Positions 1,020-15,338 of a stretch of 24,000 nucleotides of DNA are shown here, piece after piece; position 1 is the stretch's first letter; every line of letters starts with the position of its first letter. Origin of the DNA: Acidimicrobiales bacterium (lineage in GTDB: Bacteria > Actinomycetota > Acidimicrobiia > Acidimicrobiales > VFJN01). The position numbers and the translations under genes were made by a program. Under the pieces are notes generated by a model, which saw nothing but the letters and a program-made list of their open reading frames with translations, was not told where the DNA came from and searched no databases. The stretch covers positions 1-24,000 of the forward strand of contig DATCYI010000031.1 of the NCBI GenBank assembly GCA_036570385.1, in the 5' to 3' direction.

Positions 1020-1487
1020 TCAAGATCGCTGGCCCTCGGCGACCAGGTCGCGGGCCAAGCGGGCCAACAGGGGTGCCAGAGCGGCCAGGTCTTCTGCGGG
1101 CCACTCCGCGAGAGCGTCGGCGAACAGGCGATGACGGGCACCACGCAGCAGCTCCAACGCCGCCGCGCCATCCGGCGTCAACCCGAGGCGGGCGACACGC
1201 CCATCGCCGGGATCACCGACACGGGCGACCATCCCTCGTTCCTCCAGGGCCTTGACCTGGCGGCTCGCCGTGGACGGATCGACACCCAGCTGCCTGGCCA
1301 GGTCCGTCAACCGGACCGGGCCGAGCTCCCCCAGGCTTCCCAGCACGCCGTAAGCGGCCCGTTCGACCGCCACCCCGGCCTGCGCCACGACGCGCTCCTG
1401 CACGCTCGGCCGCGTCGCCGCCCGGACGATGGCCACCACCGACTCCTCGATCGCGCCGATCGTCACGCCAGAAGCGACTCGTCCCAC
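1020..1487 (-). CDS. MarR family transcriptional regulator, 155 aa
   Basis: Winged-helix core LTDLARQLGVDPSTASRQVKALEERGMVARVGDPGDGRVARLGLTPDG. GTG start at 1487. Divergent from the hydrolase gene. Confidence 0.85.
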   Translation of the reverse strand: MGRVASGVTIGAIEESVVAIVRAATRPSVQERVVAQAGVAVERAAYGVLGSLGELGPVRLTDLARQLGVDPSTASRQVKALEERGMVARVGDPGDGRVARLGLTPDGAAALELLRGARHRLFADALAEWPAEDLAALAPLLARLARDLVAEGQRS

Positions 1488-1500
1488 GCCCCCAGACTAC

Positions 1501-1517
1501 TTGGCTGCATCACCCAA
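1501..1517. promoter_or_regulatory. Candidate MarR operator: imperfect palindrome TTGGCTG-cat-CACCCAA in the 43-bp divergent intergenic region
   Basis: Read directly; arms match 6/7. It lies between the marR start (1487) and the hydrolase ATG (1531), in a locally less GC-rich stretch. Confidence 0.3.
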
Positions 1518-1530
1518 CCTTCGAACTAGC

Positions 1531-2436
1531 ATGCTGCGAGTGCGGCATTCGCCGATCCACTTCGAGGTGGCCGAGGGCGTTGTCCTCGCCGGGGACGCGT
1601 GGGGTGAGCCCGATGCGCCGCCCGTGGTCCTCTTGACCGGTGCCGGGCAGACCCGCCACGCCTGGGGCCAGACCGGCGAGGCACTGGCCGCCGCCGGCTT
1701 CCGGGCCATCGCCGTGGACCATCGGGGCCACGGCGACAGCACCTGGCCCACCGGCGACGACGCCTATGGGATGGAGGTGTTCCTCGAGGACACCATCTGC
1801 CTGTGCGCCCAGCTCCAGCGGCCGGTGGTGATCGGGGCGTCCCTCGGCGGGATGGCCGCGCTCATCGGAATCGGCCACCGGGCCGCGATCGACGCCCGGG
1901 CCCTCGTGCTCGTCGACGTCGCTCCCCGCCTCGAGTTCGCCGGCGCCACCCGGGTTCTGGAGTTCATGTCCGCCCATCCCGACGGGTTCGCCACCCTCGA
2001 CGAAGCCGCCGACTGGATCGCCTCCTACCTCCCCCACCGCGACCGCCGACCAACCACCGCCGGCCTGCAGAAGGTGCTCCGCCGACACGGCGACCGATGG
2101 CGCTGGCACTGGGACCCCCGATTCATCGAGGGATTGCGCCGGACCATCCTCACGAGCCCGGCAGGAGCCCAGGCACACATGGCGGAGATGCACGGCCGCA
2201 TGTTCGCCGCCGCCTCCGCGCTGCGGATCCCGACGCTGCTCGTCCGCGGCGCGATGTCCGACGTCGTCAGCGAAGCGGGCGCCCGCGAGTTCCTCACCGC
2301 GGTACCCCACGCCACCTACCTCGACGTCACCGGCGCAGGGCACATGGTGGCCGGCGACCGCAACGACACCTTCACCGACGCCATCGTCACGTTCCTCAAC
2401 GACCTACCACCCACCACCGACGCGGACGCGCCCTGA
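1531..2436 (+). CDS. Alpha/beta hydrolase fold protein, ~301 aa
   Basis: Track ORF 1429..2436, trimmed to the in-frame ATG at 1531 because the upstream part overlaps marR. Motifs: PPVVLLTGAGQTRHAW, AVDHRGHGDS, nucleophile elbow GASLGGMAAL, and C-terminal GAGHMV (catalytic His). Confidence 0.85.
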   Translation: MLRVRHSPIHFEVAEGVVLAGDAWGEPDAPPVVLLTGAGQTRHAWGQTGEALAAAGFRAIAVDHRGHGDSTWPTGDDAYGMEVFLEDTICLCAQLQRPVVIGASLGGMAALIGIGHRAAIDARALVLVDVAPRLEFAGATRVLEFMSAHPDGFATLDEAADWIASYLPHRDRRPTTAGLQKVLRRHGDRWRWHWDPRFIEGLRRTILTSPAGAQAHMAEMHGRMFAAASALRIPTLLVRGAMSDVVSEAGAREFLTAVPHATYLDVTGAGHMVAGDRNDTFTDAIVTFLNDLPPTTDADAP

Positions 2437-2608: not shown

Positions 2609-3937
2609 TCAGTCCGGTGCGTCGGTTGGAGCCGTGTGAACGCCCTCGAAGAGGAAGCCGATGAGCTCGGGGTCATTGAGGATGGCCCAGTCGGGCGCCA
2701 TGAGCTTGGCGTAGCGCTCGAAGTAGAGCATCTGCTTGGCGACGAGGACGAGCTCGCGGGGGAGGCGCACTTCGTAGCGGGTGCCGATGCGGACGATGTC
2801 GATGAGGACTTGGCCGTAGGAGATCTCCGACAGCGGTCGCCCGAGGATGGGCTCGACGATCTCGGCGATGTCGCGGGCGGACTGCTCGAGGTCGGCGGGA
2901 CGGAGGACCGCGCCCATCTCATAGATGGCTGTGGCGACGGCTTGGAAGTCGTTGTCGATGAGCAGTGCAGGGAGGCCCGTGCGGATGATGTCGCGGGTGG
3001 CGTCGTCGAGGGCGCCGCAGATGCCGAAGTCGAGGAAGACGATGTTGCCGTCGGTGTCGAGCATGAGGTTGCCGGCGTGCACGTCACCGTGGAAGAAGCC
3101 GTGCTGGAGCGCGCCTTCCATCCAGGCGCGCACGCCCCGCTTCAGTGCGGTGCCGAGATCCCACCCGGTGGTGCCGAGGCGGGCCAGGTCGTCGATCTTG
3201 TAGCCGTGGATGCGTTCCATGGTGAGCACGCGTGGCGTGGTGAGTGGCCAGTGCACGGCCGGAACCCGGACATGGTCGTTGGTGCCGTACGCGCGCAGGT
3301 TGCTCGCGTACCGCTCCATGGAGCGGGCTTCGATGACGAAGTTGAGCTCTTGGGCGAGCGTCGTTGCGAAGTCCTCGACGACGGCGACGGGGTTGGCCAT
3401 CCGTCCCTTCGATGAAGTGCGCTCGAGGAGTCGGGCGAGACGTTGGAGGATGGCGAGGTCGTCGCGAAGTCGCGGCGCAATGCCCGGTCGCTGCACCTTG
3501 ACGACGACGTCGGTTCCGTCGTGCAGCTCGGCGGCGTGGACTTGCGCGATCGACGCGGAGGCGAGCGGCTTGGGCTCGAAGTGGCGGAACAGGCCGTCGG
3601 GATGGTCCCCGAGCTCGGCGGTGATGACCTCGATGACGTCCGCGGTCGGCACGGGCGGGACCTCGTCAAGGCAGGCGCGGAACTCGTCGGCGAGGACCTC
3701 GGGGAACAAGCCGGGGCTCGAGGCGATGAGCTGGGCCAGCTTGACGTAGGTCGGTCCGAGCTCTTCGAAGGCGCGGCGAAGTTCGTTGGCGCCGGCGGCG
3801 CCGCGAGGTTCGTGTCGGGACCGTCGCGCGAAGCGGATGCCGTGGCGGGCGAGCACGGCGCCGGTACGGGTCGCTCGGCGGGCGACGGCGGAGGGGTGAG
3901 CCGGGCCCAACGCGGGCTGAAGGTGGGTGTGCGGCAC
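2609..3937 (-). CDS. UbiB/ABC1 (AarF) atypical protein-kinase-like family protein, ~442 aa
   Basis: C-terminal 440 aa of track ORF 2609..4396. Motifs: LGPTYVKLAQLIASSPGLFP, ASASIAQVHAA, VVVKVQRPG, HGDVHAGNLML, FLDFGICG. The track N-terminus overlaps the TetR gene, so the start was set at GTG 3937, preceded by AGGAGA (complement of 3942-3947). Confidence 0.85.
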   Translation of the reverse strand: MPHTHLQPALGPAHPSAVARRATRTGAVLARHGIRFARRSRHEPRGAAGANELRRAFEELGPTYVKLAQLIASSPGLFPEVLADEFRACLDEVPPVPTADVIEVITAELGDHPDGLFRHFEPKPLASASIAQVHAAELHDGTDVVVKVQRPGIAPRLRDDLAILQRLARLLERTSSKGRMANPVAVVEDFATTLAQELNFVIEARSMERYASNLRAYGTNDHVRVPAVHWPLTTPRVLTMERIHGYKIDDLARLGTTGWDLGTALKRGVRAWMEGALQHGFFHGDVHAGNLMLDTDGNIVFLDFGICGALDDATRDIIRTGLPALLIDNDFQAVATAIYEMGAVLRPADLEQSARDIAEIVEPILGRPLSEISYGQVLIDIVRIGTRYEVRLPRELVLVAKQMLYFERYAKLMAPDWAILNDPELIGFLFEGVHTAPTDAPD

Positions 3938-3970
3938 GGGGTCTCCTGGCGACCAAGCCTCGACAACGAT

Positions 3971-3994
3971 GAAACAGAATCGTATGGTTGTTTC
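3971..3994. promoter_or_regulatory. Candidate TetR operator GAAACA-N12-TGTTTC in the 60-bp divergent region between ABC1 kinase 1 and TetR 1
   Basis: Read directly in the only AT-enriched stretch of the neighbourhood (cgacaacgatGAAACAgaatcgtatggtTGTTTCgacATG). It is flanked by a TCGACA direct repeat (3960-3965 and 3992-3997) and abuts the TetR ATG at 3998. Confidence 0.35.
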
Positions 3995-3997
3995 GAC

Positions 3998-4642
3998 ATG
4001 GCGTCCAACTTGTCCTCCGAGGTGGTCGACGACGGCTCCATCCTCGAGCTCGGCATCCGCCTCACCGGTGTGCCGCCGGTCCCGGCGGTGGAGCTGGACC
4101 CGTACCTCGACGCCGCGGCGCGCTGTTTCACCCGGTTCGGCATCACCCGCACCCGGGTGCCCGATGTCGCTGCCGAGGTGGGCGTATCGCGGGTGACGGT
4201 GTACCGGCAGGTCGGCACAGTCGAGGACATGGCCCGCCTGCTGCTGGCCCGGGACATGCACCGCATCCTCACAGCGCTGCCTGCAGCGCTCGAGGGGGCG
4301 GTGGGACCCGACACGGTCGTCCGTCTGGTGGAGACGATCATCGGCCACGCCCGCGCCCATCCTGTGCTGGTCAAGGTGCTCAACGACGAGCCCCACCTGC
4401 TGGGCCCCGTCCTCGTCAGTGACCTGGGGACGGTCGCCGCCCGGGTCGCTGACGTCGTGGCCCCACTCCTCGAGGCGCTGATGGCGGCCGGTCAGCTAGC
4501 CCGGCGCGACCCACGGGTCGTGGCCGAGTGGCTGGTCCGCCAGACCGTCACGCTGATCCTGGCGCCACCCGAGGGAGACCTGCACGCCTTCCTGGCCGAG
4601 CTGCTCGTCCCCGCCCTGACCCCTACCGAGGAGCGTCGATGA
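3998..4642 (+). CDS. TetR/AcrR family transcriptional regulator, 214 aa
   Basis: In-frame ATG inside track ORF 3443..4642. HTH: AAARCFTRFGITRTRVPDVAAEVGVSRVTVYRQVG. Its stop overlaps the next start (ATGA at 4639-4642). Confidence 0.85.
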   Translation: MASNLSSEVVDDGSILELGIRLTGVPPVPAVELDPYLDAAARCFTRFGITRTRVPDVAAEVGVSRVTVYRQVGTVEDMARLLLARDMHRILTALPAALEGAVGPDTVVRLVETIIGHARAHPVLVKVLNDEPHLLGPVLVSDLGTVAARVADVVAPLLEALMAAGQLARRDPRVVAEWLVRQTVTLILAPPEGDLHAFLAELLVPALTPTEERR

Positions 4643-6981
4643 CCGCGACCATGCAGGCACCGGCGCGTGCGGGTGACGGTGATCGGATCGCCGCCCCGCG
4701 TCCCACCGACGCCGCCCGGCTGGCCGAGATCGTGGTGGTGCTAGCGCGCAACGGGCTGCTGACGGTGAGCCGCCGCGGCGGCGCCATCATGGTCGGGCCG
4801 CGCCGGCAGGCCCCACGAGCCGTGGCAGTGGCGTTGCGGCGCAGCTTCGCCGACCTCGGCCCGACCTATGTGAAGTTCGGGCAGCTGATCGCGTCGAGCC
4901 CGGGCCTGCTCCCGGGGTTCCTGGCGACTGAGTTCCGCCGGCTGCTCGACGCGGTGCCCCCGGAGTCGCCCGCGAAGATCCGGCGGGTGATCGAACGCGA
5001 GCTCGGCGCCAGCGTCGATGAGCTGTTCGCCACCTTCGACGACGCACCGGTTGCCGCGGCGTCGGTGGCGCAGGTCCACCGGGCGACCCTCGCCGACGGG
5101 ACCGAGGTCGCCGTAAAGGTCCGGCGGCCGAACCTGCGCGGCCGCATCGAACAGGACCTGCGCCTGCTGCGTGTGCTGGCCAGCGTGCTTGCCCGGGCCG
5201 GCGCGTTGGGGGAGACGCTCAACCCGACGGCGATCGTCGACGACCTGGCCGACACGATCCGCGCCGAGCTGGACTTCCGGCGCGAGGCGGCGGCGATGAC
5301 TGAGTTCGCGGACAACCTCGCCTGCCACGCCACCAACCAGCGGTGCGTCGTGCCCCGACCGATCGAGGGGATGGTCGCCGAGCGGGTCCTGGTGATGACC
5401 TACGTCGACGGGACGCCGGTCGATGACGGCACGACGCTGCGTGCCGCCGGCCACGACCTCGAGGACCTCGTGCGCAGCGGCGTGCGGGCGTGGCTGGGCG
5501 GCGCGCTGGAGCACGGCCTGTTCCACGGCGACGTGCATGCCGGCAACCTGTTCGTCACGCCCGCCGGCGAGATCGCGTTCCTCGACTTCGGGATCATGGG
5601 CCGTCTGGACGACCGCACCCGGCTGGTGCTGCGCCGAGCTCTCCCTGCGCTGCTCGTCGACGGCGACTTCGCCACGGTGGTGCGGGCCGTGTTCGACCTC
5701 GGCGCCGCCACCGAACCGGTCGACCTCGCACAGGCGACCGCCGATGTCCGCGACCTGCTCGAGCCGATCGCGACGAAGCCGCTGGCCGAGATCAGCTACG
5801 GCGAGCTGCTAGGCCACATCCTCAGGGTCGCCACCCGCTATCACGTCGTGCTGCCACGCGAGCTGGTGCTGGTGGTCAAGCAGCTCCTCTACTTCGAGCG
5901 CTATGCCAAGGAGCTCGCACCGAACTACCGGCTGCTCGCCGATCAGCGGATCCTCGAGCACCTCGTCGGCGCCCCCCAAGTCGTCGTCGAGCGGCCGGCG
6001 CTGCGCACGCGACCCGTCACCAGCGACCTCGACGCACCAGGGGGCGGGCTGGTCGTGGCCCGTGACGCCGAGGTGCAGTTCTCCTGGGACTACACCGGCG
6101 GGCGCGCCGAGCTGACCAAGCTGTACTCCAAGGCCAAGCGTTCGCAGTGGAACGCGACCACCGACATCGACTGGTCCATCGACGTCGACCCGCTCGACAC
6201 TGGCGGGCTGGCGTCCTATCTGCCGATGATCGCCGCGGAGTCCTTTGCCCGGTTCGACGAACGCGAACAGGCCGAGGCCGGTCGGCAGTTCAACGCGTGG
6301 ATCACCAGCCAGTTCCTCCACGGCGAGCAGGGCGCGCTGCTGGCCACCGCCAAGCTCGTCCAAGAGGTCCCGTGGACCGAAGCCAAGTACTACGGCGCCA
6401 CCCAGGTGATCGACGAAGCACGCCACGTCGAGGCCTACGCCCGCTACCTCGACGAGAAGCTCGAACTGACCTACCCGTGCAACGACAACCTCCGCCAGCT
6501 CCTCGAGCTGGTGATCGCCGACACCCGCTGGGACGTCACCTACCTCGGCATGCAGATCATCGTCGAGGGCATCGCCCTAGCCGCGTTCGGGCTCATCCAC
6601 CAGTTCTCCACCGAACCGCTCATCAAGCAGATCACCCGCTACGTCATGGCCGACGAAGCCCGCCACGTCGCCTTCGGCGCCCTGTCCCTGGCTGGCGTGT
6701 ATGACGACATGACCACCGCCGAGCTGCATGAACGGGAGGACTTCGTGGTCGAGGCCGCCTGGCTGATGCGTGACCGGTTCCTGGCCACCGAGGTGTGGGA
6801 ACGCCTCGGCATCCCTCTCGACGACGGGCTGCGCGACTCGGCGAACTCACCGATGCTCCAGCTGTTCCAGCGGGTGCTGTTCGCCAAGATCACCCCCAAC
6901 CTCCGCAAGATCGGCCTGCTCTCACCGCGCCTCACCGACCGACTCGTCGGCATCGGCGCCATGGCCCCCGACGACCTGTGA
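4639..6981 (+). CDS. Fusion protein, 780 aa: N-terminal UbiB/ABC1 atypical kinase-like domain plus C-terminal ferritin-like diiron-carboxylate (R2/AurF-like) domain
   Basis: Track ORF 4528..6981, with the start at ATG 4639 (ATGA overlap with the TetR stop). Kinase motifs: LGPTYVKFGQLIASSPG, AAASVAQVH, VAVKVRRP, HGDVHAGNL (5524-5550), LDFGIMG. After a ~45-aa linker: KRSQWNATTDIDWS, HGEQGA, IDEARHVE, IVEGIALAAF, ADEARHVAFG, i.e. an E / ExxH / E / ExxH pattern. No stop codon lies between the domains. Confidence 0.8.
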   Translation: MTATMQAPARAGDGDRIAAPRPTDAARLAEIVVVLARNGLLTVSRRGGAIMVGPRRQAPRAVAVALRRSFADLGPTYVKFGQLIASSPGLLPGFLATEFRRLLDAVPPESPAKIRRVIERELGASVDELFATFDDAPVAAASVAQVHRATLADGTEVAVKVRRPNLRGRIEQDLRLLRVLASVLARAGALGETLNPTAIVDDLADTIRAELDFRREAAAMTEFADNLACHATNQRCVVPRPIEGMVAERVLVMTYVDGTPVDDGTTLRAAGHDLEDLVRSGVRAWLGGALEHGLFHGDVHAGNLFVTPAGEIAFLDFGIMGRLDDRTRLVLRRALPALLVDGDFATVVRAVFDLGAATEPVDLAQATADVRDLLEPIATKPLAEISYGELLGHILRVATRYHVVLPRELVLVVKQLLYFERYAKELAPNYRLLADQRILEHLVGAPQVVVERPALRTRPVTSDLDAPGGGLVVARDAEVQFSWDYTGGRAELTKLYSKAKRSQWNATTDIDWSIDVDPLDTGGLASYLPMIAAESFARFDEREQAEAGRQFNAWITSQFLHGEQGALLATAKLVQEVPWTEAKYYGATQVIDEARHVEAYARYLDEKLELTYPCNDNLRQLLELVIADTRWDVTYLGMQIIVEGIALAAFGLIHQFSTEPLIKQITRYVMADEARHVAFGALSLAGVYDDMTTAELHEREDFVVEAAWLMRDRFLATEVWERLGIPLDDGLRDSANSPMLQLFQRVLFAKITPNLRKIGLLSPRLTDRLVGIGAMAPDDL

Positions 6982-6991
6982 GGAACCGCTG

Positions 6992-8245
6992 ATGCCCGCC
7001 ATCTGTGACGTCGACGCCGACAACGTCCTGCTCCGCCTGCTGCTCACCCCGGAAGGGCGAGCCGACCCCTACACCCACTACCGCCAGCTGCGCGACACCG
7101 CCCCAGTCCTTCGGAGCAGCTTCGGGCCCATCGTCCTGTCCCGCTACGACGACTGCATGACCGCGTTGCGAGACCCCCGCCTCGGCCGCGGAACGGCGCT
7201 GCGCGCCGCGGGCGGCGCACCCCTGGGCTTCGCCGGGTTCGACGTCGACCCCGAAGTGCGCAAGGCGTTCTTCGAACGGGCGGGCAACAACATGCTCTTC
7301 GCCGACCCGCCCGACCACACCCGCCTGCGCCGTCTCGTGAGCCGGGCCTTCACGCCCAAGCGGATCGAATCGCTCCGTCCCGCGGTGGAGGCGATGGTGC
7401 ACCGCCACCTCGACCCCATGCTCGCCCAAGGCGAGGTCGACGTCATGGAAGTGCTCGCCTTCCCCCTGCCCGTCAATGTCATCGGCGAGCTCGTGGGCGT
7501 CCCGGCCCCCGATCGGGCCGGGTTCCAGCCCCTCATCCGCGCCGCGGTCGCCGCACTCGACCCGAGCAGCGACGGTGCCGCCATCGCCACGGCCGCCGAC
7601 GCCATGGACCAGGCCCGCAGCTACTTCGCCGACCTCGTCGCCGAACGGCGACGCCGTCCCGCCGACGATCTCCTCTCCGGGCTGATTGCCAGCCGAGACG
7701 CCGGCGACGCCCTGTCGGACGATGAGGTCATCGCCACTGCCGTTCTGTTGTTCTCCGCCGGGTTCGAGACCACGACCAACCTCATCGGCAACGGGCTGCT
7801 CGCCCTGTTGCAGCACCCCGACCAGCTCGAGCGTTGGCGAGCCGACCCGACCCTGGCGCCGGCGGCGGTCGACGAGCTGCTGCGCTGGGACAGCCCCGTG
7901 CAGATGAACATGCGCACCGCCCTCGAACCCGCCGAGATCGCCGGCGAGTCGCTCGCCGCGGGCGATGTCGTGATCGTCCTGCAAGGCGGCGCCAACCGTG
8001 ACCCCGCCCACTTCCCCGACGCCGACACGTTCGACGTCGGCCGGCCCGAGAACACGCCGCTCAGCTTCGGGTGGGGCATCCACCACTGCCTCGGCGCTGC
8101 CCTGGCCCGGATGGAAGGCGAAGTCGTGTTCAAGGCCCTCCTGGCTCGCTGCCGCAGCATCGAGGCGCGCTTCGACGAACCGGAGTGGCGGCCCACCCTC
8201 ACGCTGCGAGGCCTCGCCACCCTGCCGGTGGAGGTCGCCGCATGA
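6992..8245 (+). CDS. Cytochrome P450, 417 aa
   Basis: ATG 6992 is preceded by GAGGAA (6980-6985). Motifs: I-helix FSAGFETTTN, ELLRWDSPV (ExxR), heme loop FGWGIHHCLGAALAR. Confidence 0.9.
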   Translation: MPAICDVDADNVLLRLLLTPEGRADPYTHYRQLRDTAPVLRSSFGPIVLSRYDDCMTALRDPRLGRGTALRAAGGAPLGFAGFDVDPEVRKAFFERAGNNMLFADPPDHTRLRRLVSRAFTPKRIESLRPAVEAMVHRHLDPMLAQGEVDVMEVLAFPLPVNVIGELVGVPAPDRAGFQPLIRAAVAALDPSSDGAAIATAADAMDQARSYFADLVAERRRRPADDLLSGLIASRDAGDALSDDEVIATAVLLFSAGFETTTNLIGNGLLALLQHPDQLERWRADPTLAPAAVDELLRWDSPVQMNMRTALEPAEIAGESLAAGDVVIVLQGGANRDPAHFPDADTFDVGRPENTPLSFGWGIHHCLGAALARMEGEVVFKALLARCRSIEARFDEPEWRPTLTLRGLATLPVEVAA

Positions 8246-9478
8246 GCACCGTCACCGGGTTCGACCCGTTCGCCGCCGAGGTCATCGACGACCCGTACCC
8301 GCACTACCGACGCCTGCGCGACGAAGCCCCGGTCTGCTGGATCGAAGAGGACGACCTGTGGATGGTGACCCGCTACGACGACGTCGCCGCGGTGCTCCAC
8401 GACCCCGCCACGTTCTCCTCGGCCGACGGCATGGGGGCGCTCATGTCCGGCCGCGTCGGCCGCCGTCGCATCGACGCTCGCGGCCTCTTCGGCCTCGACA
8501 TGCGAGAGCTTCGGGTGCTCATCGCCACGGACCCGCCGAACCACACCCGGCTGCGCCGGCTCCTGTCCCGAGCGTTCACCCCGCGGGCCATTGCCGAGCT
8601 CGAGCCGCACCTACGCCAGGTCTGTGCGGAGCTCGTCGACGACCTCCTGACCGCCACCGCCTCCGGCACCGGCGACCTCGTCGCCCAGCTGGCGTTCCCG
8701 TTCCCAGTCATCGTCATCGCCGAGCTGCTCGGCATCCCCCCCCGAGCGGCGCGACGACTTCAAGCGATGGTCCGACGCACTCGTCGGCGCACTGTCGGGC
8801 AACTGGAACCCCGTCGAGGCCCAGCAAACGCTGGCCGAGATGTTCATGTACCTCGCCGACGTCGTGGAGCGTCGCCGCCAGGAGCCAGGTGACGACCTCA
8901 TCAGCCGCCTCGTCGCAGGCGCCGACCCCGACGATCCCGACAGCCTCAGCCCCATCGAGATCACGCTGTTCGCGGTGCTGCTGCTCGTGGCCGGCAACGA
9001 GACCACCACCAACCTGCTCGGCAACGGCGCGGCAGCGTTTGCCGCCCACCCCGACCAGGCCGGCCTCCTTCGCTCCCGCCCCGATCTCCTGGGACCGGCC
9101 ATCGAGGAGGTCCTCCGCTGGGACGCGCCGGTCCAGGCCTTGTTCCGATCGACCACACGACCGGTCGCCCTCGCCGGCGTCGACCTGCCTGCGGGCGCCA
9201 TGGTCCTCGTGTCCTTCGCAGCCGCCAACCGGGACAGCCGCCACTTCCCCGATGCCGACCGCTTCGACATCGCCCGCCGTCCCAGCGACCACCTCGCCTT
9301 CGGGCACGGCATCCACCACTGCCTCGGCGCCTCCCTGGCCCGACTCGAAGCGCGCCTCGTCGGCGAAACCCTCGCCACCCGCGGCGTCCGCCTGCAGCCC
9401 GCACCCGGCGCCCGCCGGGTCGACAGCATGATCCTGCGCGGCTTCGCCAGCTACCCGGTCACCGCGACGGCGCGCTAG
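8242..9478 (+). pseudogene. Cytochrome P450 paralogue interrupted by a +1 frameshift in a C8 homopolymer (8736-8743)
   Basis: The N-terminal half is in the frame of track ORF 8071..8892 (MSTVTGFDPFAAEVIDDPYPHY...AELLGIPP). The C-terminal half is in the frame of ORF 8840..9478 (VAGNETTTN, EVLRWDAPV, FGHGIHHCLGASLAR). Removing one C restores ...LGIPPERRDDFKRWSDALVGALSGNWNPVEAQQTLAEMFMYL... and a 411-aa P450. ATGA overlap with the upstream P450. Confidence 0.8.
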
Positions 9479-9479
9479 C

Positions 9480-9500
9480 GTTTGGACGATGAGTCCAAAC
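9480..9500. promoter_or_regulatory. Perfect 8-bp inverted repeat GTTTGGAC-gatga-GTCCAAAC (candidate TetR operator or inter-cistronic hairpin)
   Basis: Read directly. It starts 2 nt after the P450 stop (9476-9478) and ends 33 nt before the TetR ATG (9533). It is unusually AT-rich for this genome. Confidence 0.4.
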
Positions 9501-9532
9501 ACGTTGTCGACACCGATGGCGCGGCACGATCG

Positions 9533-10144
9533 ATGAGCCCGCGCCAGGTCCCGCCCGGCCTCGCCGACAAGCTCACGTCCGCGGCTGGCGGGTTCGCGGT
9601 CGCGTTCGACGACATACGCATGGAAGACATCGCGTCGGCCAGCGGCATCCCGCGCGCCACCCTCTACTACTACTTCGCTGGCAAGGACGACGTGCTGGCG
9701 TTCCTGCTGCGGTCGATGCTCGACGACCTACAGGTCTCCGTCGACACCGCACTCGAGGTGCGCGGTGACACCCGAGCGCGGTTGCGCGCCGTCATGCGCG
9801 CGCAGTTCGGCCACCTCGCCGCGAACCCAGCAGCAGCACAGCTCCTGATCATGAACCTGGGCCGCGCCGGTCGCGTCGGCACCATCGCATCAGGGATCGA
9901 CGACGGCTTCCACGCCCCGGTCCGCCAGATCCTCGCCGAGGGTGTCGCCGCCGGCGACCTCGTCGACATCGACGTCGACGTGACCGCCGCCGCCCTGTTC
10001 GGCGCCGTCACCGTCGTTGGGCTCCGATCCCTGGTGAGCACCGGCACCGGCACCGTCGACGTCGACGCCACCACCGACCGGCTGTTCCCGGTGTTCTGGT
10101 CCGGCATGGCCGCCGCAGGCAAGACCCGGAGCATGAAGCGGTGA
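9533..10144 (+). CDS. TetR/AcrR family transcriptional regulator, ~203 aa
   Basis: Track ORF 9482..10144 (TTG). I prefer the in-frame ATG at 9533 because the TTG lies inside the palindrome. HTH: MEDIASASGIPRATLYYYFAGKDDVLAF. GTGA overlap with the next gene. Confidence 0.8.
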   Translation: MSPRQVPPGLADKLTSAAGGFAVAFDDIRMEDIASASGIPRATLYYYFAGKDDVLAFLLRSMLDDLQVSVDTALEVRGDTRARLRAVMRAQFGHLAANPAAAQLLIMNLGRAGRVGTIASGIDDGFHAPVRQILAEGVAAGDLVDIDVDVTAAALFGAVTVVGLRSLVSTGTGTVDVDATTDRLFPVFWSGMAAAGKTRSMKR

Positions 10145-11130
10145 GCGGTGTCCCGCTGGCGCCGGTGGTCGACCACCTGCCCGACGGCATCGTGCACGTC
10201 GCCCTGCCCACCCCGTTCCCGGTGGGACCGGTCAACTGCTACGTCCTGCTCGACGACCCGGTCACCGTCGTCGACCCGGGGATGATGTGGGCCGACAGCA
10301 CCCAGCTGCTCGAAGCCACGCTCGCCGCCCACGGGCGCACCCTCGGCGAGGTCGCACAGGTGCTGATCACCCACGGCCACCCCGACCACTTCGGCGCCGC
10401 CGGTTGGCTCGCCGGCACCGCCGATGCCAGCGTCGTTTGCGGACGGGCCGAGGTCCCCAAGATCACCCAGGCCACCGATCGGCCCTCGATGGTCGACGTC
10501 ATCGAGCGACTCGGCATCCCCAACACGATGCATGACACGTTCCGCGCCTTCTACGAAGGCGTCCAACAGATGTCCCACCCCATCGACGCCCGCCGTCTTC
10601 GCCTTCTCGACGACGGCGACACCCTCCCCGCCGGCGGACGGGACTGGCAGGTCCACGTCACCCCCGGCCACTCCGTCGGCCACGTCTCCCTCTACGAACC
10701 CGACGAACGGGTCCTGCTCTCCGGCGACCACCTGCTCGCCTGCATCACCCCGAACCCTGTCCTCGAACCCGACCCGGACACCGTCGACGGGCGCCGGCGC
10801 AGCCTTGTCGAGTACCTCGCCTCCCTCGAGCGGTTCATCCGCCTCGACCCGCTCCTTGTCCTGCCCGGCCACGGCCCCCGGTTCCAGGACGTGCCCGCGC
10901 TGACCGAGGCGATGCGTCACCACCACGACAGCCGAGCCGACGAGATCCTCGAGGTCATCCGCCGGCTCGGCGAGGCCACCCCGTACGAGCTGTCCGGCGA
11001 GCTGTTCCCCCACATCCGCGACTTCTCAATCATGCTCGGCGTCTCCGAGGTCGTCGGACACCTCGACCTCCTGGAGGACGACGGCAAGCTCGTACGTCGA
11101 GGCCACCCCCACCGATACACCGCGGCATGA
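10141..11130 (+). CDS. MBL-fold metallo-hydrolase, 329 aa
   Basis: HxHxDH motif (ITHGHPDHFGAAGW), later TPGHSVGH and LPGHG. GTG start overlaps the TetR stop. Confidence 0.85.
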   Translation: MSGVPLAPVVDHLPDGIVHVALPTPFPVGPVNCYVLLDDPVTVVDPGMMWADSTQLLEATLAAHGRTLGEVAQVLITHGHPDHFGAAGWLAGTADASVVCGRAEVPKITQATDRPSMVDVIERLGIPNTMHDTFRAFYEGVQQMSHPIDARRLRLLDDGDTLPAGGRDWQVHVTPGHSVGHVSLYEPDERVLLSGDHLLACITPNPVLEPDPDTVDGRRRSLVEYLASLERFIRLDPLLVLPGHGPRFQDVPALTEAMRHHHDSRADEILEVIRRLGEATPYELSGELFPHIRDFSIMLGVSEVVGHLDLLEDDGKLVRRGHPHRYTAA

Positions 11131-11585
11131 CCGACACCTCCACGCCTCGACCCGCCTTCGAGACCTTCGACCCCGCCGTTGCCGAATTGATGACGACCGC
11201 GGCCGGCGAGATGGGCGGCATCCCCGACTACCTCGCCATCCGCACCGTCGAGGTCGGACCCGGCACCATGACCGCGGAGCTCGACGTCCGCCCCGAGCTC
11301 CTCAACCCGTTCGGCTCCGCCCACGGCGGCACCCTCGCTGCGCTCGCCGATCACGTCCTCGGCGCTGTCCTCTACCCCCTCATCCCTCGTGGCGCGTGGG
11401 CGGCTACCACCGAGCTGAAGCTCAACTTCCTCGCCCCCGTCCGCTCGGGGGTCCTGCGTGCCCGATCCGAGGTGATCTCGCTCACGAAGCGCACCGCCGT
11501 TGTCCGCATCGACGCCACCAACGACGGCCGGCTGGTGGGCGCCGCGCAGGGAACCGTCACCATCAGCGCACCGAAGGCGCCCTGA
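11127..11585 (+). CDS. PaaI-family hotdog-fold thioesterase, 152 aa
   Basis: LNPFGSAHGGTLAALADHVLGAV, followed by a TTELKLNFLAPV... core. ATGA overlap with the MBL gene. Confidence 0.8.
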   Translation: MTDTSTPRPAFETFDPAVAELMTTAAGEMGGIPDYLAIRTVEVGPGTMTAELDVRPELLNPFGSAHGGTLAALADHVLGAVLYPLIPRGAWAATTELKLNFLAPVRSGVLRARSEVISLTKRTAVVRIDATNDGRLVGAAQGTVTISAPKAP

Positions 11586-11587
11586 AC

Positions 11588-12673
11588 GTGAAGTTCGACC
11601 TCATGACCGGCGGCCTCCCGCTAGCCCGCATGCAACATCTCGCACGCGACGCCGACGCCGCCGGGTTCTCCGGCATCGTGGTCACCGAAGCTGGCCGCAC
11701 CGCCTACCTCGGATGTGCCGCTGCCGCGCTCGCCGCAGAGATCGAGATCCTCACCGGCGTCGCAGTGGCCTTCCCCCGCAGCCCCATGGTCACTGCCCAG
11801 GTGGCGTGGGAGCTCGCCGAAGCGACCAACGGCCGGTTCCGCCTCGGCCTGGGCACCCAGGTCCGCGCCCACATCGAACGTCGCTACGGAGCCGAGTTCG
11901 ATCATCCCGGCCCCCGACTACGCGAGTACGTAGGCGCCATCCGCTCGGCGTTCTCCGCCTTCCGCGGCGACCGACTGCACCACGAGGGGGAGTTCTGGAA
12001 GCTCTCGCTCCTCCCCGCGATGTGGTCGCCGGGAGCGATCGCCGTGCCGGACCCGCCGATCGACCTCGCCGCGGTCAATCCGTGGATGCTGCGCATGGCC
12101 GGCGAGGTCGCGGACGGCATCCATGTCCACCCCCTCAACACCCCCATCTACTTGCGCGACACCGTCGCCCCCAACCTCGAGGCCGGCGCGTCCACTGCCG
12201 GTCGGTCGCCAGCTGACCTTGAGGTCATCGTGCCCACCTTCGCGGCTCCCGGCTCGACCAGCGACGAAGTGCAGGAATGGCGTGAGCTGGCCCGCATGCA
12301 AGTCGCCTTCTACGGGTCGACCCCCAACTATGCGTTCATCTTCGACCAGCTCGACAGGGAAGACACCACCGCCCGCCTTCGGGAACGACAGACGGCCGGG
12401 GACCTCGCCGGCATGGCTGCGGTGATCGACGACGACCTTCTCGAGCCCTTCTGCGTCAGCGGCGAGTGGGCCCAGGTCGCCGACAACCTGATCGAGCGGT
12501 ACCAGGGGACCGCTACTCGAATCGTCTCCTACTTCGCTGGCATGGCCTGGGCGCGAGATGAACACGCCCTCGGCGCGTGGGGCGAGCTCGCCCGTGCCAT
12601 ACGGGCTGCCAACCCCGCCGAGGCTCCGGACGTGACCTCCGTCGTGACCCCGTCCGCGGACGCCGCCCGATGA
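11588..12673 (+). CDS. LLM-class (luciferase-like) flavin/F420-dependent oxidoreductase, ~361 aa
   Basis: GTG 11588 lies 2 nt after the thioesterase stop, in-frame inside track ORF 11396..12673. The sequence FPRSPMVTAQVAWELAEATNGRFRLGLGTQVRAHIERRYG...PRLREYVGAIRSAF resembles the actinobacterial probable-F420 LLM subgroup. Cofactor assignment is inferred from family only. Confidence 0.8.
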   Translation: MKFDLMTGGLPLARMQHLARDADAAGFSGIVVTEAGRTAYLGCAAAALAAEIEILTGVAVAFPRSPMVTAQVAWELAEATNGRFRLGLGTQVRAHIERRYGAEFDHPGPRLREYVGAIRSAFSAFRGDRLHHEGEFWKLSLLPAMWSPGAIAVPDPPIDLAAVNPWMLRMAGEVADGIHVHPLNTPIYLRDTVAPNLEAGASTAGRSPADLEVIVPTFAAPGSTSDEVQEWRELARMQVAFYGSTPNYAFIFDQLDREDTTARLRERQTAGDLAGMAAVIDDDLLEPFCVSGEWAQVADNLIERYQGTATRIVSYFAGMAWARDEHALGAWGELARAIRAANPAEAPDVTSVVTPSADAAR

Positions 12674-12870
12674 GCCCCCGACACGACCACGAGCCCGTCC
12701 GATCCGAGATGGTGCGTGTCCCCGGCGCCGCCCCGCGGTTCCGGCCCCGCTGCCGCTGCGGGTGGACCGGTGATCCCATGGACGCCAGCGCCGTCGTGCT
12801 CGCCGTCGATGCTCACATCGAACAGGCCCTGCGGCATCCCCAGGTGCCGGACACGGACGAACGCGGCTGA
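12670..12870 (+). CDS. Small (66 aa) uncharacterised protein with an RCxCGW ... H-x6-H motif
   Basis: In-frame ATG inside track ORF 12577..12870. ATGA overlap with the LLM stop, and its TGA overlaps the MMPL ATG (TGATG at 12868-12872). Strong GC3. A paralogue is encoded at 15339-15536. Confidence 0.65.
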   Translation: MSPRHDHEPVRSEMVRVPGAAPRFRPRCRCGWTGDPMDASAVVLAVDAHIEQALRHPQVPDTDERG

Positions 12871-15335
12871 TGTTCAACCGGTTCGTCCACGCCATCGAAG
12901 GTCGCGCCCGGTGGGTGATCGCCGCGTGGGTGGCCGCCGCGGTGGCGATGACGTTGGCGGCGCCGTCGCTGAACGAGGTCGGATCCCAGGACACCGCCGA
13001 CTTCCTCCCGGCCGACGCGCCGTCGCAGCAGGCGGATCGGATCCTCGCCGATCTGTTCCCCGACGACCCCACCCGAGAGGCGGCCATCATCGTCGTCGCC
13101 CGCGAGGGCGGCCTCACCGACGCCGACCGCACCTACATCGGACAGGTCGCCGAGGACCTCCGCTCGCCGTCGTTCGCCGATGACATCAGCGGCGTGCAGA
13201 CCGTCGCCACCGATCCCGACCTCGGCCCCTTCCTGCGATCCGAGGACGGCGCCGCCGAGCTGATGGTGGCCAGCATGCGTCGGGCCCCGTTCTCCACCAA
13301 CGGGACCCAGGCGGTCGAGGACCTCCGCAACCACCTCGAGACCACCGCCCCCGACGGTGTGCAGGCCCATGTGACCGGCATCGCCGGCCTCGCTGCCGAC
13401 CAGGCCGCCGGCGTGGTCGAGTCCTTCGACCGCACGGCGATCGTCACCGTCATCCTGGTGCTGATCATCCTGCTGGCCATCTACCGCTCCGTCGTCGCCG
13501 CACTGATCCCGCTGCTCACGATCGGGCTGGCCTTCGGGGTCTCCAACGGGGTCGTCGCCTACATCGCCGACGCCGGGCTGAAGGTCAACACCATGGTCGG
13601 CACCTTCTTGGTGGTGATGATCTTCGGTGCCGGCACCGACTACTGCTTGTTCCTCACCTCCCGCTACCGCGAAGATCTGGTCGCCGGCGACCCCATCGCT
13701 GTCACCGTCGTTCGCAGCACCAAGGTGATCGGCGCCGTCATCGCGGCGTCGGCGGCCACCGTGATCGTCGGGTTCTCATCGATGATCACCGCCGACTTCG
13801 GGATCTTCAAGACGATGGGCCCCGCCATCGGCATCGCCATCGCCGTCACCCTCGTTGCCGGCCTCACCCTCACCCCCGCCCTGTTGAGCGTCGCCGGCGA
13901 ACACGCCTTCTGGCCCCGACCACTCGCCGTCCTTCGCGCCACCAGTGACGAGGGCTCCGCCCGCTGGGCACGAGTGGCCGACGTGGTCCGGCGACGACCA
14001 GCCGAGGTGCTCCTCGCCGGGCTCATCGCCTTGATCGTCCCCGCCGCCGGGCTCGGCTGGTACGAGCAGTCCTTCGACCTCGTCCGCGACCTTCCCGCCG
14101 GCGCCGACGCCCGCGACGGGTTCGACACCGTCGCCGCCCACTACGCCGGCGGCACCATCTCGCCCGTCTACGTCGTCGTCACCGCCAACGGCCCCATCCT
14201 CGACGACGAGCACCTCGCCGCAGTCGACCAGCTCACCGACGCCCTGCGCAGCCAGCCCGGCGTCGGTCAGGTCCGCTCTGTCACCCAACCCGCCGGCGCC
14301 CCCCTCACCACCGCGAACCTCGGCACCCTCACCGGCGGCGCCACCGACCCCGCCGCCCTCGGCTTCGACCCCGCCACCACCGACCTCACCCCGTTCCTCG
14401 ACGGGCTCGCCTCCCCGGAAGGTCTGCGCCTCACCGGGCCGCTCCTGCGTCAGTACCCGCAGCTCACCGAACGCCTCGGCCTCCTGCTCGGCACCGACGG
14501 CGCCACCACCCGGCTCATCGTCGCCCTCGACGGCAACCCCTACGACAACAGCGCCCTCGACGTCATCACCACCATCGACGAGAACACCCGAGCCGCCCTC
14601 GACGGCACCGCCCTCACCGACGCCGACATCGCCGTGGGCGGGCCGTCGAGCTTCTACGCCGACATGCGCCAGATCAGCAACGACGACTTCAAGCTCATCG
14701 TGGTCGTCATCCTCGCCGCCATCTTCATCGTGCTCGCCCTCCTGCTCCGCTCGCTCGTCGCACCGCTGTACCTGCTCGCCACTGTCGTCCTGTCCTACGC
14801 CGCCACCATGGGCATCACCGTCGCCGTGTTCCAAGGGCTCCTCGGCGACCCCGGCATCACCTTCTGGCTGGCACCGTTCCTGTTCGTGATCCTCGTGGCC
14901 CTCGGCGCTGACTACAACATCTTCATCATGAGCCGCATCCGCGAGGAAGCGGACGCCGGCCACGAGATCCACATCGCCGTCAGCCGCGGCGTCACCCTCA
15001 CCGGACGCGTGATCACCTCCGCCGGGCTCATCCTCGCCGGCACCTTCGCCGCCCTGCTCCTGGCGCCACTGCCCAACCTCCGCCAGATCGGCTTCGGTGT
15101 CACGGTCGGGATCCTCATCGACACCTTCCTGGTCCGATCCCTCCTGGTCCCCGCCGCCACCATGCTCCTGGGCCGCTGGGCCTTTTGGCCCCGACCACCC
15201 GGAACCAATGCACGAACGGACCGAGCGGACGACAACCACCTCCTCGGCACGCCAGCGGCCGTCGAGCCGGCCGCCACCCCGCGCACGCCCGCTGCCGCAC
15301 CTCGCCGGCAACCACAGACGGCCGGACAACGCTGA
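12870..15335 (+). CDS. MMPL family (RND superfamily) transporter, 821 aa
   Basis: Two 6-TM bundles with GAGTDYCLFLTSRYRE and LGADYNIFIMSRIREE motifs. MMPL-type N-terminus (FLPADAPSQQADRIL...FP). Low-complexity Pro/Ala tail. Confidence 0.92.
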   Translation: MFNRFVHAIEGRARWVIAAWVAAAVAMTLAAPSLNEVGSQDTADFLPADAPSQQADRILADLFPDDPTREAAIIVVAREGGLTDADRTYIGQVAEDLRSPSFADDISGVQTVATDPDLGPFLRSEDGAAELMVASMRRAPFSTNGTQAVEDLRNHLETTAPDGVQAHVTGIAGLAADQAAGVVESFDRTAIVTVILVLIILLAIYRSVVAALIPLLTIGLAFGVSNGVVAYIADAGLKVNTMVGTFLVVMIFGAGTDYCLFLTSRYREDLVAGDPIAVTVVRSTKVIGAVIAASAATVIVGFSSMITADFGIFKTMGPAIGIAIAVTLVAGLTLTPALLSVAGEHAFWPRPLAVLRATSDEGSARWARVADVVRRRPAEVLLAGLIALIVPAAGLGWYEQSFDLVRDLPAGADARDGFDTVAAHYAGGTISPVYVVVTANGPILDDEHLAAVDQLTDALRSQPGVGQVRSVTQPAGAPLTTANLGTLTGGATDPAALGFDPATTDLTPFLDGLASPEGLRLTGPLLRQYPQLTERLGLLLGTDGATTRLIVALDGNPYDNSALDVITTIDENTRAALDGTALTDADIAVGGPSSFYADMRQISNDDFKLIVVVILAAIFIVLALLLRSLVAPLYLLATVVLSYAATMGITVAVFQGLLGDPGITFWLAPFLFVILVALGADYNIFIMSRIREEADAGHEIHIAVSRGVTLTGRVITSAGLILAGTFAALLLAPLPNLRQIGFGVTVGILIDTFLVRSLLVPAATMLLGRWAFWPRPPGTNARTDRADDNHLLGTPAAVEPAATPRTPAAAPRRQPQTAGQR

Positions 15336-15338
15336 GCC

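Follow-up and report, generated by a model that had tools for sequence, protein, structure and literature searches.

The UbiB/ABC1 proteins are ancient and universal and are tied to human disease through COQ8A and COQ8B. What they do biochemically is debated: activities as an ATPase, as a kinase and as a lipid extractor are all under discussion, and their client enzyme is in question. In COQ8, the KxGQ domain mediates membrane binding, and the ATPase activity of the UbiB family is stimulated by cardiolipin membranes and by phenolic lipid-like compounds (10.1101/149823). Rv3197 of Mycobacterium tuberculosis, a UbiB-family ATPase that lacks transmembrane segments, binds erythromycin and confers inducible, ATPase-dependent resistance (PMC6208485). 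Among the ferritin-like metalloproteins, R2lox has a fatty acid of long chain length bound at the metal site and no established enzymatic function (PMC9314684), and BioE is an ADO-like ferritin-like diiron oxygenase that cleaves C14–C18 acyl-CoA/ACP (PMC12704756). Here we describe a gene that joins a UbiB/ABC1 module to a predicted ferritin-like dimetal oxidase domain in a single polypeptide. The gene lies at 4639–6981 on the forward strand of a stretch of 24,000 nucleotides (the window) from an Acidimicrobiales bacterium (contig DATCYI010000031.1); the features of the locus are collected in Table 1.

In the list of open reading frames, the fusion gene begins with an ATG, runs for 780 codons and ends with a TGA at 6979–6981. 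The longest form of the frame (4528–6981) uses an in-frame GTG at 4528, which would add 37 codons upstream of the ATG at 4639; however, 4639 is the likely start because the closest fusion homologues are 778–780 residues long. A GGAG at 4630–4633 is situated five bases 5′ of this ATG, which overlaps the stop codon of the upstream TetR gene (ATGA, 4639–4642), and the TetR gene is, as judged from this overlap, translationally coupled to the fusion. Further, the GC content at third codon positions followed a single phase from 4681 to 6841, the domain junction included. When 5.8 billion proteins were searched with a word index, ∼95 clusters of full-length fusions with 62–96% identity were recovered, which originate from NCBI, ENA, JGI and Logan assemblies and all match UbiB_helical, ABC1 and AurF in Pfam; in an exhaustive HMMER search, only one representative at 50% identity covers the Acidimicrobiales fusions. 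A scan of GTDB species representatives placed the full-length gene in ∼11 species, all of them Acidimicrobiales and several labelled Microthrixaceae. The carriers include the finished chromosome of the cultured Actinospongicola halichondriae Hal317 and two metagenome-assembled genomes (MAGs) that are 95% identical to the window.

These results bear directly on whether a missed stop or an indel might have made one gene out of two neighbours, that is, on whether the fusion might be an artefact of assembly or annotation. A probable homopolymer indel elsewhere in the window, in the second P450 gene, and a frameshift-split fusion gene on a long-read contig (L011) would both favor such an artefact. 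However, the frame is shared by 94 full-length fusions from independent assemblies, among them a finished genome from a cultured strain; the coding phase runs on without interruption, and the break in L011 falls inside ABC1 and away from the junction. Because these 94 independent homologues from many assemblies keep the uninterrupted architecture, a missed stop or frameshift is excluded independently of read data, and the artefact is already refuted for practical purposes. The initial annotation of this locus, made from the sequence alone, had claimed one uninterrupted frame joining two complete domains, and the Pfam matches, the motifs described below and the single third-position phase all agree with it; likewise, the profile search it had proposed for the product placed both ABC1 and AurF above the Pfam curated cut-offs. 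Overall, the fusion is confirmed as a real single gene that is conserved in a group of Acidimicrobiales.

Some of the loci carry other forms of the gene. In L011 (5961–8341; P0124), the fusion gene is split within the ABC1 domain with a 4-nucleotide overlap; we considered it as a natural split gene and rejected it, reading a break inside ABC1 rather than at the junction as a frameshift. L022 was considered as a split form as well, since a tblastn match reached residue 504, but its gene is an unfused UbiB of ∼428 residues. In L026 (6001–8663), the fusion gene is disrupted: its match exceeds the expected length by ∼320 nucleotides, and a gap separates the N- and C-terminal parts.

Both domains belong to known superfamilies, and the architecture has gone unremarked in the sequence databases, where the sole annotation of the fusion clusters is 'AarF/UbiB family protein'. 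The initial annotation had taken the architecture to be uncharacterised and possibly new. The first part stands, inasmuch as full-text literature searches turned up no paper on the ABC1 plus AurF architecture, on the standalone diiron clade or on the FAAL-T-R-diiron fusion (the last two are described below); the architecture is, however, not new to the databases.

The N-terminal half of the fusion (residues 24–440) is a complete UbiB/ABC1 module. Pfam ABC1 (PF03109) matched residues 102–349 with 228.2 bits against a cut-off of 22.9, and the UbiB motifs were located at 79–82 (KFGQ), 139–147 (AAASVAQVH), 157–161 (VAVKV, containing K160), 296–303 (HGDVHAGN) and 316–318 (DFG). Every hallmark quoted in the initial annotation is therefore present, and K79/G81/Q82, the A-rich loop, K160, E210/D212, H296-G-D298-x-H-x-G-N303 and D316-F-G are invariant in 95/95 fusions. 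Consistent with these motifs, the modelled half matched human COQ8A (5i35) in a Foldseek search of the PDB (E 2.5e-14, template modelling (TM) score 0.77 on the target), and the other matches included M. smegmatis MSMEG_1954 and M. tuberculosis Rv3197; no solved structure covered both halves. No transmembrane-like segment was detected in the fusion, in which the maximum 19-residue hydropathy (1.8) belongs to a helix at the core of the oxidase half. The best NCBIfam match of the N-terminal half, TIGR01982, scored 356.6 bits, under its equivalog cut-off of 487.55, and PRK04750 scored 278.8 against 667; by these profile scores, the half does not qualify as a UbiB equivalog of the E. coli type.

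The C-terminal half matched Pfam AurF (PF11583) over residues 492–759 with 51.4 bits against a cut-off of 29.6. Its motifs are QWNATTDIDWS (503–513), HGEQGA (561–566), DEARHVE (592–598), VEGIA (642–646) and DEARHVA (672–678). The putative metal ligands E563, E593, H596, E643, E673 and H676 are invariant in 95/95 fusions and, in the model, sit on the long helices 541–576, 580–608, 631–656 and 660–684. The oxidase half is also better conserved than the UbiB half (71–97% versus 58–95% identity). Modelled alone, it reached a predicted local distance difference test score (pLDDT) of 86.5 and a predicted TM score (pTM) of 0.87, and its nearest solved folds in Foldseek were R2lox, class I R2 and ADO (E ∼1e-5, TM 0.52–0.78, identity 13–21%). 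The four-helix-bundle domain with an E/ExxH/E/ExxH pattern that had been read from the sequence is thus supported by the motifs, the invariant ligands and an R2/R2lox/ADO fold. The accompanying description of its N-terminal segment as R2/AurF-like is borne out for R2, since the segment aligns to residues 29–63 of R2lox; the AurF label of the domain reflects a broad Pfam assignment only.

We then considered to which of the described families this half might belong. When the family profile was compared with the PDB, remote relatives only were returned (ADO 5uxg, 8e-6; R2lox, 5e-5; MMOH, ∼0.1), and AurF and CmlI were absent both from these profile matches (E≤1) and from the top 50 Foldseek matches of the C-terminal half. 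The position four residues before E673, which we take from the AurF numbering to correspond to the third His ligand of AurF, is V669, and this Val is conserved in the wider family too. Pfam COQ7 gave no match to the fusion at E≤1, the NCBIfam R2lox model scored 38.8 bits against a cut-off of 194, Ald_deCOase (PF11266) scored 15.8 against 28 and TIGR04059 scored 14.4 against 222. Membership of the AurF, Coq7, R2lox or ADO type was therefore rejected, as each fails a score or a feature test. Because its PDB relatives are remote, AurF and CmlI are missing from the matches, a Val occupies the third-His position and COQ7 is not matched, we assign the C-terminal half to an uncharacterised clade, filed by Pfam under 'AurF', with what is predicted to be a bona fide ferritin-like dimetal site.

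An AlphaFold2 model of the whole fusion, built from a 133-sequence alignment, had a mean pLDDT of 88.4 and a pTM of 0.79, and the ∼37-residue linker between the domains was partly ordered in it. Since this pTM was obtained for domains of ∼440 and ∼300 residues joined by a partly ordered linker, the model suggests that the two domains have a fixed mutual arrangement.

A TetR gene is found directly upstream of the fusion or of its unfused orthologue in 11/12 loci and is the only near-constant neighbour; TetR-UbiB adjacency recurs as far as Pseudonocardia. A 38-nucleotide element at 3960–3997 (TCGACAACGATGAAACAGAATCGTATGGTTGTTTCGAC) abuts the TetR start codon and is nearly invariant in the window, in L012, in L016 and in Actinospongicola (L019), whereas the flanking DNA diverges. 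The inverted-repeat tool missed the palindrome within it owing to indels, and the element was found by cross-species alignment. It probably serves as a TetR operator, placed in a promoter shared with the divergent UbiB paralogue.

In line with a suggestion of the initial annotation, the mechanism that we find most plausible is one in which the UbiB half would present a lipid and the diiron half would oxidise it. We arrive at this model because the protein has two conserved active sites, because it is linked to TetR and because UbiB proteins are described as ATPases in the literature (10.1101/149823; PMC6208485). In such a unit, TetR would sense a hydrophobic small molecule, either the substrate or a related compound, and derepress the operon. 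The UbiB half would bind the membrane via its KxGQ domain, the polypeptide being soluble or peripheral, and would, at the expense of ATP, extract a hydrophobic substrate or present it. The likeliest candidates for this substrate are a lipid, either long-chain acyl or isoprenoid, and a lipophilic xenobiotic resembling a polyketide. The dimetal domain (Fe/Fe or Mn/Fe) would then activate O2 and oxidise the substrate by hydroxylation, desaturation or C–C cleavage, and in some genomes CYP107-like P450s or an enoyl-CoA hydratase could carry out further steps. The fusion would make the hand-off obligatory, with a stoichiometry of 1:1. Taken as a whole, a TetR-controlled unit in which a UbiB ATPase presents a hydrophobic substrate to an attached O2-dependent dimetal oxidase is the reading we tentatively favor, at somewhat less than an even chance.

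The initial annotation had also drawn an analogy with Coq8 and Coq7 of the ubiquinone pathway. Spelled out, this analogy would have the diiron half hydroxylate the ring of an intermediate, of the polyprenyl-quinol or menaquinone type, that the UbiB half presents. Coq7 is a ferritin-like diiron hydroxylase too, and TIGR01982 is the best NCBIfam match of the UbiB half. Further, COQ8 and E. coli UbiB support ubiquinone hydroxylation steps and are activated by phenols (10.1101/149823). However, the TIGR01982 score lies under the cut-off (357 against 488), the COQ7 family is not matched, and the neighbours are not quinone genes: no ubi, men or prenyltransferase genes occur in the ∼12 loci examined. 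In addition, TetR control and a patchy distribution are unlike a core respiratory-quinone function. Acidimicrobiia, moreover, use menaquinone. The analogy is not supported, and we regard prenylquinone chemistry as very unlikely.

The P450 gene directly downstream of the fusion brings in a different possibility. The nearest solved relatives of its product in the PDB are PksS, EryF, TamI, PikC and BioI, and the macrolide and polyketide oxidases among them (PksS, EryF, PikC, TamI) would fit an inducible defence against xenobiotics or antibiotics in which the UbiB half binds a toxin that is macrolide-like or otherwise lipophilic, the diiron domain and the P450s inactivate it and TetR senses it. 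TetR-coupled operons are typical of drug-responsive systems, MMPL and MBL-fold genes are nearby, and the erythromycin-binding Rv3197, whose resistance depends on its ATPase (PMC6208485), is among the closest fold matches. On the other hand, the fusion scored only 106 bits with the NCBIfam MABP-1 model, for which the cut-off is 800, CYP107-type P450s act on fatty-acyl chains too, as BioI in the same match list illustrates, and genes for efflux or ribosome protection are not a consistent feature of the surroundings. The other fusions and contexts of the diiron family, to which we turn now, point to acyl and lipid chemistry instead. Overall, we consider a defence role unlikely.

Outside the fusion, homologues of the C-terminal domain form at least ∼8,000 standalone clusters (at 90% identity) of 327–390 residues with 50–58% identity. 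They occur in Deltaproteobacteria and in Actinomycetota, both Acidimicrobiia and others, and bear no more specific name than 'ferritin-like domain-containing protein' or 'diiron oxygenase'. In 43 sequences of this standalone family, the ligands do not vary, and neither do many second-sphere residues. Their gene contexts vary: one lies between dapB and dapA, another adjoins TetR and P450/acyl-CoA dehydrogenase/thiolase genes, a further one is near an acyl-CoA dehydrogenase gene, and a Nocardia gene lies in a cluster resembling those for nonribosomal peptide synthetases, with condensation-PCP, AMP-binding and ACAD-like genes. An exhaustive HMMER search of 1.84 billion representatives also located the diiron domain (43–49% identity) at the C terminus of proteins of ∼1,400–1,430 residues, in which it follows a FAAL-like AMP-binding domain, a PP-binding domain and a thioester reductase (NAD_binding_4). 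These FAAL-T-R-diiron proteins (P0263, P0286, P0300 and P0504/P0506), from Polyangium (one cluster) and from metagenomes, appear to be uncharacterised and are reminiscent, by analogy with the AAR-ADO pair, of a fatty-aldehyde-forming line fused to an oxidase. Together with the resemblance to ADO and R2lox, both of which bind long-chain aliphatic ligands, the FAAL-T-R fusions suggest that the family points to long-chain aliphatic substrates, an analogy that does not fix the substrate of the UbiB fusion.

The same family bears on whether the two halves might be paired for regulation, with UbiB acting as a kinase or ATP switch of the oxidase or with the dimetal domain serving as a non-catalytic, R2lox-like sensor of lipid or O2 that gates the ATPase. 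Protein kinase activity is reported for some plant ABC1K proteins (PMC8956952), and R2lox, one of the nearest folds, with a fatty acid at its metal site, has no established enzymatic function (PMC9314684). However, invariance of the six ligands and of many second-sphere residues in the standalone homologues is expected for a catalytic metal site, COQ8-type UbiBs act as ATPases with no demonstrated trans-kinase activity (10.1101/149823), and the attachment of the diiron family to complete FAAL-T-R enzymatic lines argues for catalysis. A regulatory pairing accordingly seems to us improbable, and we retain the presentation of a hydrophobic substrate by UbiB to a catalytic oxidase as the preferred reading.

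A second UbiB-diiron architecture was found in P0244, a protein of 789 residues that is 34% identical overall to the window fusion and carries all four ligand motifs. It has three relatives (P0382–P0384; L068, L069), one of them from the Deltaproteobacteria MAG GCA_016713535, and the linker in this clade is longer than that of the window fusion by roughly 70–110 residues. The N-terminal half of the window fusion is 70% identical to unfused Acidimicrobiales UbiBs versus 40% to the deltaproteobacterial fusions, and that of P0244 is 52% identical to unfused myxobacterial-type UbiBs versus 42% to the Acidimicrobiales fusions. As each N-terminal half is thus closest to the unfused UbiBs of its own lineage, two independent fusion events are suggested, and the fusion in the deltaproteobacterial clade probably arose independently. 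The gene surroundings of the deltaproteobacterial fusion were uninformative.

UbiB is also found joined to other partners. P0242 (761 residues, from metagenomes) is an alpha/beta-hydrolase-UbiB fusion whose UbiB part is 48% identical, and in Actinospongicola, as in the window, a separate alpha/beta-hydrolase gene adjoins the UbiB paralogue. A natural unfused UbiB orthologue with 70% identity, in L009, keeps the order TetR-UbiB-P450, the first P450 gene being retained beside it. Taken together, the hydrolase-UbiB fusion and the TetR-UbiB-P450 order of the unfused orthologue suggest a common theme in which UbiB is paired with an enzyme acting on hydrophobic substrates. A bolder extension of the preferred reading would be that this protein works as a self-contained extract-and-oxidise machine driven by ATP and shows UbiBs in general to deliver membrane lipids to enzymes. 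The arrangement would have arisen at least twice independently, with parallels in the hydrolase-UbiB fusions and the TetR-UbiB-P450 operons, and its oxidase half would define the long-chain acyl or aldehyde chemistry of a very large clade; we hold this extension to be possible but doubtful.

Several observations weigh against the proposed UbiB-oxidase partnership and its repeated origin. Apart from TetR, the neighbours differ among the 12 loci. No diiron gene lies within 6 kb of the unfused UbiB relatives (45 UbiB loci), and no UbiB gene lies near the standalone diiron homologues (4 diiron loci); because the standalone genes show no such neighbourhood link, it is the fusions by themselves that tie UbiB to the oxidase. 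No reductase or ferredoxin partner is present in the window. Finally, it is pairwise identities of the N-terminal halves that suggest independent fusion events, the C-terminal halves being uninformative in this respect.

Table 1. Features of the fusion gene and its surroundings (window positions)
Feature	Position	Strand	Basis
Whole fusion gene	4639..6981	+	780 residues plus TGA; open reading frame list, third-position GC phase, 94 homologues, AlphaFold2 model
UbiB-specific N-terminal helical extension with KxGQ (K79, G81, Q82 at 4873–4884)	4708..4941	+	Helices 24–104 in model
ABC1 atypical kinase-like core: A-rich loop, K160, E210/D212, HGDxHxGN (D298), DFG	4942..5685	+	PF03109, motifs, Foldseek
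UbiB C-terminal helical region (PF27536 UbiB_helical)	5686..5958	+	Precomputed Pfam matches on all homologues; helices 363–443 in model
Inter-domain linker, ∼37 residues	5959..6069	+	Poorly conserved sequence; pLDDT 70–90 and short strands 461–463, 471–473 in model
Predicted ferritin-like dimetal oxidase domain, residues 478–780	6070..6978	+	AurF 51.4 bits, ligands, domain model, fold matches
TetR-family regulator	3998..4642	+	Pfam TetR_N, TetR_C_36; ATGA overlap with fusion
Operator-like imperfect palindrome TCGACAACGAT-GAAACAGA-ATCGTATGGTTGTTTCGA	3960..3997	.	Cross-species alignment of the ∼60-bp divergent intergenic region
Unfused UbiB paralogue, ∼442 residues, KLAQ for KxGQ	2609..3937	-	Pfam ABC1, 238 bits; divergently transcribed
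Alpha/beta-hydrolase adjoining UbiB paralogue	1429..2436	+	Pfam Abhydrolase_1/Hydrolase_4; same position in L001, L016
CYP107-like P450, directly downstream of fusion	6992..8245	+	Pfam p450
Second P450, frameshifted	8242..9478	+	Extra C in C8 run 8736–8743

The gene order shared by the window and its near relatives is MMPL/alpha/beta-hydrolase, divergent UbiB paralogue, TetR, fusion, P450 and second P450. The UbiB paralogue is 50% identical to the N-terminal half of the fusion, and its catalytic motifs other than KxGQ are intact. It is present in 4/12 loci (L012, L016, L019 and L002) and additionally in L022, with KLAQ in all five; an Ala at the Gly position of KxGQ was found in only 15/275 fetched UbiB proteins, the motif being otherwise near-invariant. 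The P450 pair occurs in 3/12 loci, an enoyl-CoA hydratase gene lies directly 3′ of the fusion in three others, and SDR, MMPL, thioesterase and hydrolase genes are further neighbours among the loci. As for the second P450 gene, a tblastn comparison with the Actinospongicola orthologue switches frame at ∼8744, where the 95%-identical MAG of L016 has C7 versus C8 in the window, and the frameshift probably reflects a sequencing error in the homopolymer rather than a pseudogene.

Downstream of the P450 pair, the co-directional genes at 9482–16772 encode a TetR regulator, an MBL-fold hydrolase, a 4HBT thioesterase, a luciferase-like monooxygenase, an MMPL transporter and a third P450. This run looks like an island for the oxidation and export of lipids or xenobiotics. 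In L012 and L016 its conservation can be followed up to the luciferase-like monooxygenase, the point at which both loci end. Toward the right end of the window we found an IS110-family transposase (18009–19214, reverse strand), an open reading frame with a weak MMPL fragment match only (20385–21233, forward strand) and an MlaE/YrbE-type permease (22569–23366, forward strand), which suggests a rearranged lipid-transport region.

The single-chain fusion fixes the identity of the client enzyme of its UbiB. The model of a substrate-presenting ATPase is therefore directly testable, as the ATP dependence of oxidation can be followed within one protein and A. halichondriae is culturable. The fusion is also an entry point to a large standalone ferritin-like dimetal family with invariant ligands, and the FAAL-carrier-reductase fusions suggest a lipid or aldehyde chemistry that is possibly useful in hydrocarbon and lipid biocatalysis.

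When set beside the described UbiB proteins, the fusion shares the full motif set, the fold and the UbiB_helical region with COQ8A/ADCK3, Coq8p and E. coli UbiB, but differs from them in its sub-cut-off equivalog score, in having no transmembrane segment or quinone-pathway context and in its C-terminal dimetal oxidase domain of ∼300 residues, which they lack. Rv3197/MABP-1 and MSMEG_1954, which are among the closest fold matches, resemble it in being actinobacterial, soluble UbiB proteins free of transmembrane segments, but they are only ∼22–24% identical to the fusion and both are without the oxidase domain.

On the oxidase side, Coq7 shares the superfamily and the general E/ExxH/E/ExxH pattern, but the fusion has no COQ7 match and no ubiquinone genes nearby. 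The likeness to the arylamine N-oxygenases AurF and CmlI is confined to a PF11583 score above the gathering threshold, and the fusion has neither an equivalent of the third His nor an aminoarene or natural-product context. R2lox has in common with the C-terminal half the ferritin-like fold, a site of four carboxylates and two histidines and the aligned N-terminal segment; however, the TM score is only 0.52–0.58, the identity is 17–21% and the score with the R2lox family model is far under its cut-off. ADO is the best real profile match in the PDB (5uxg) and has a core fold TM score of 0.78 on the target, but the domain described here is ∼80 residues longer, with extra N- and C-terminal helices, and whereas ADO works with an acyl-ACP reductase, no aldehyde-forming reductase is linked to the fusion in the window. 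BioE, by its description, is set apart from the C-terminal half by its occurrence in Bacteroidota, its ∼20% identity to ADO, its MocR-type regulator and its lack of a UbiB partner, but in its use of long-chain acyl thioesters under a ligand-responsive repressor it is a functional analogue of what we propose here (PMC12704756).

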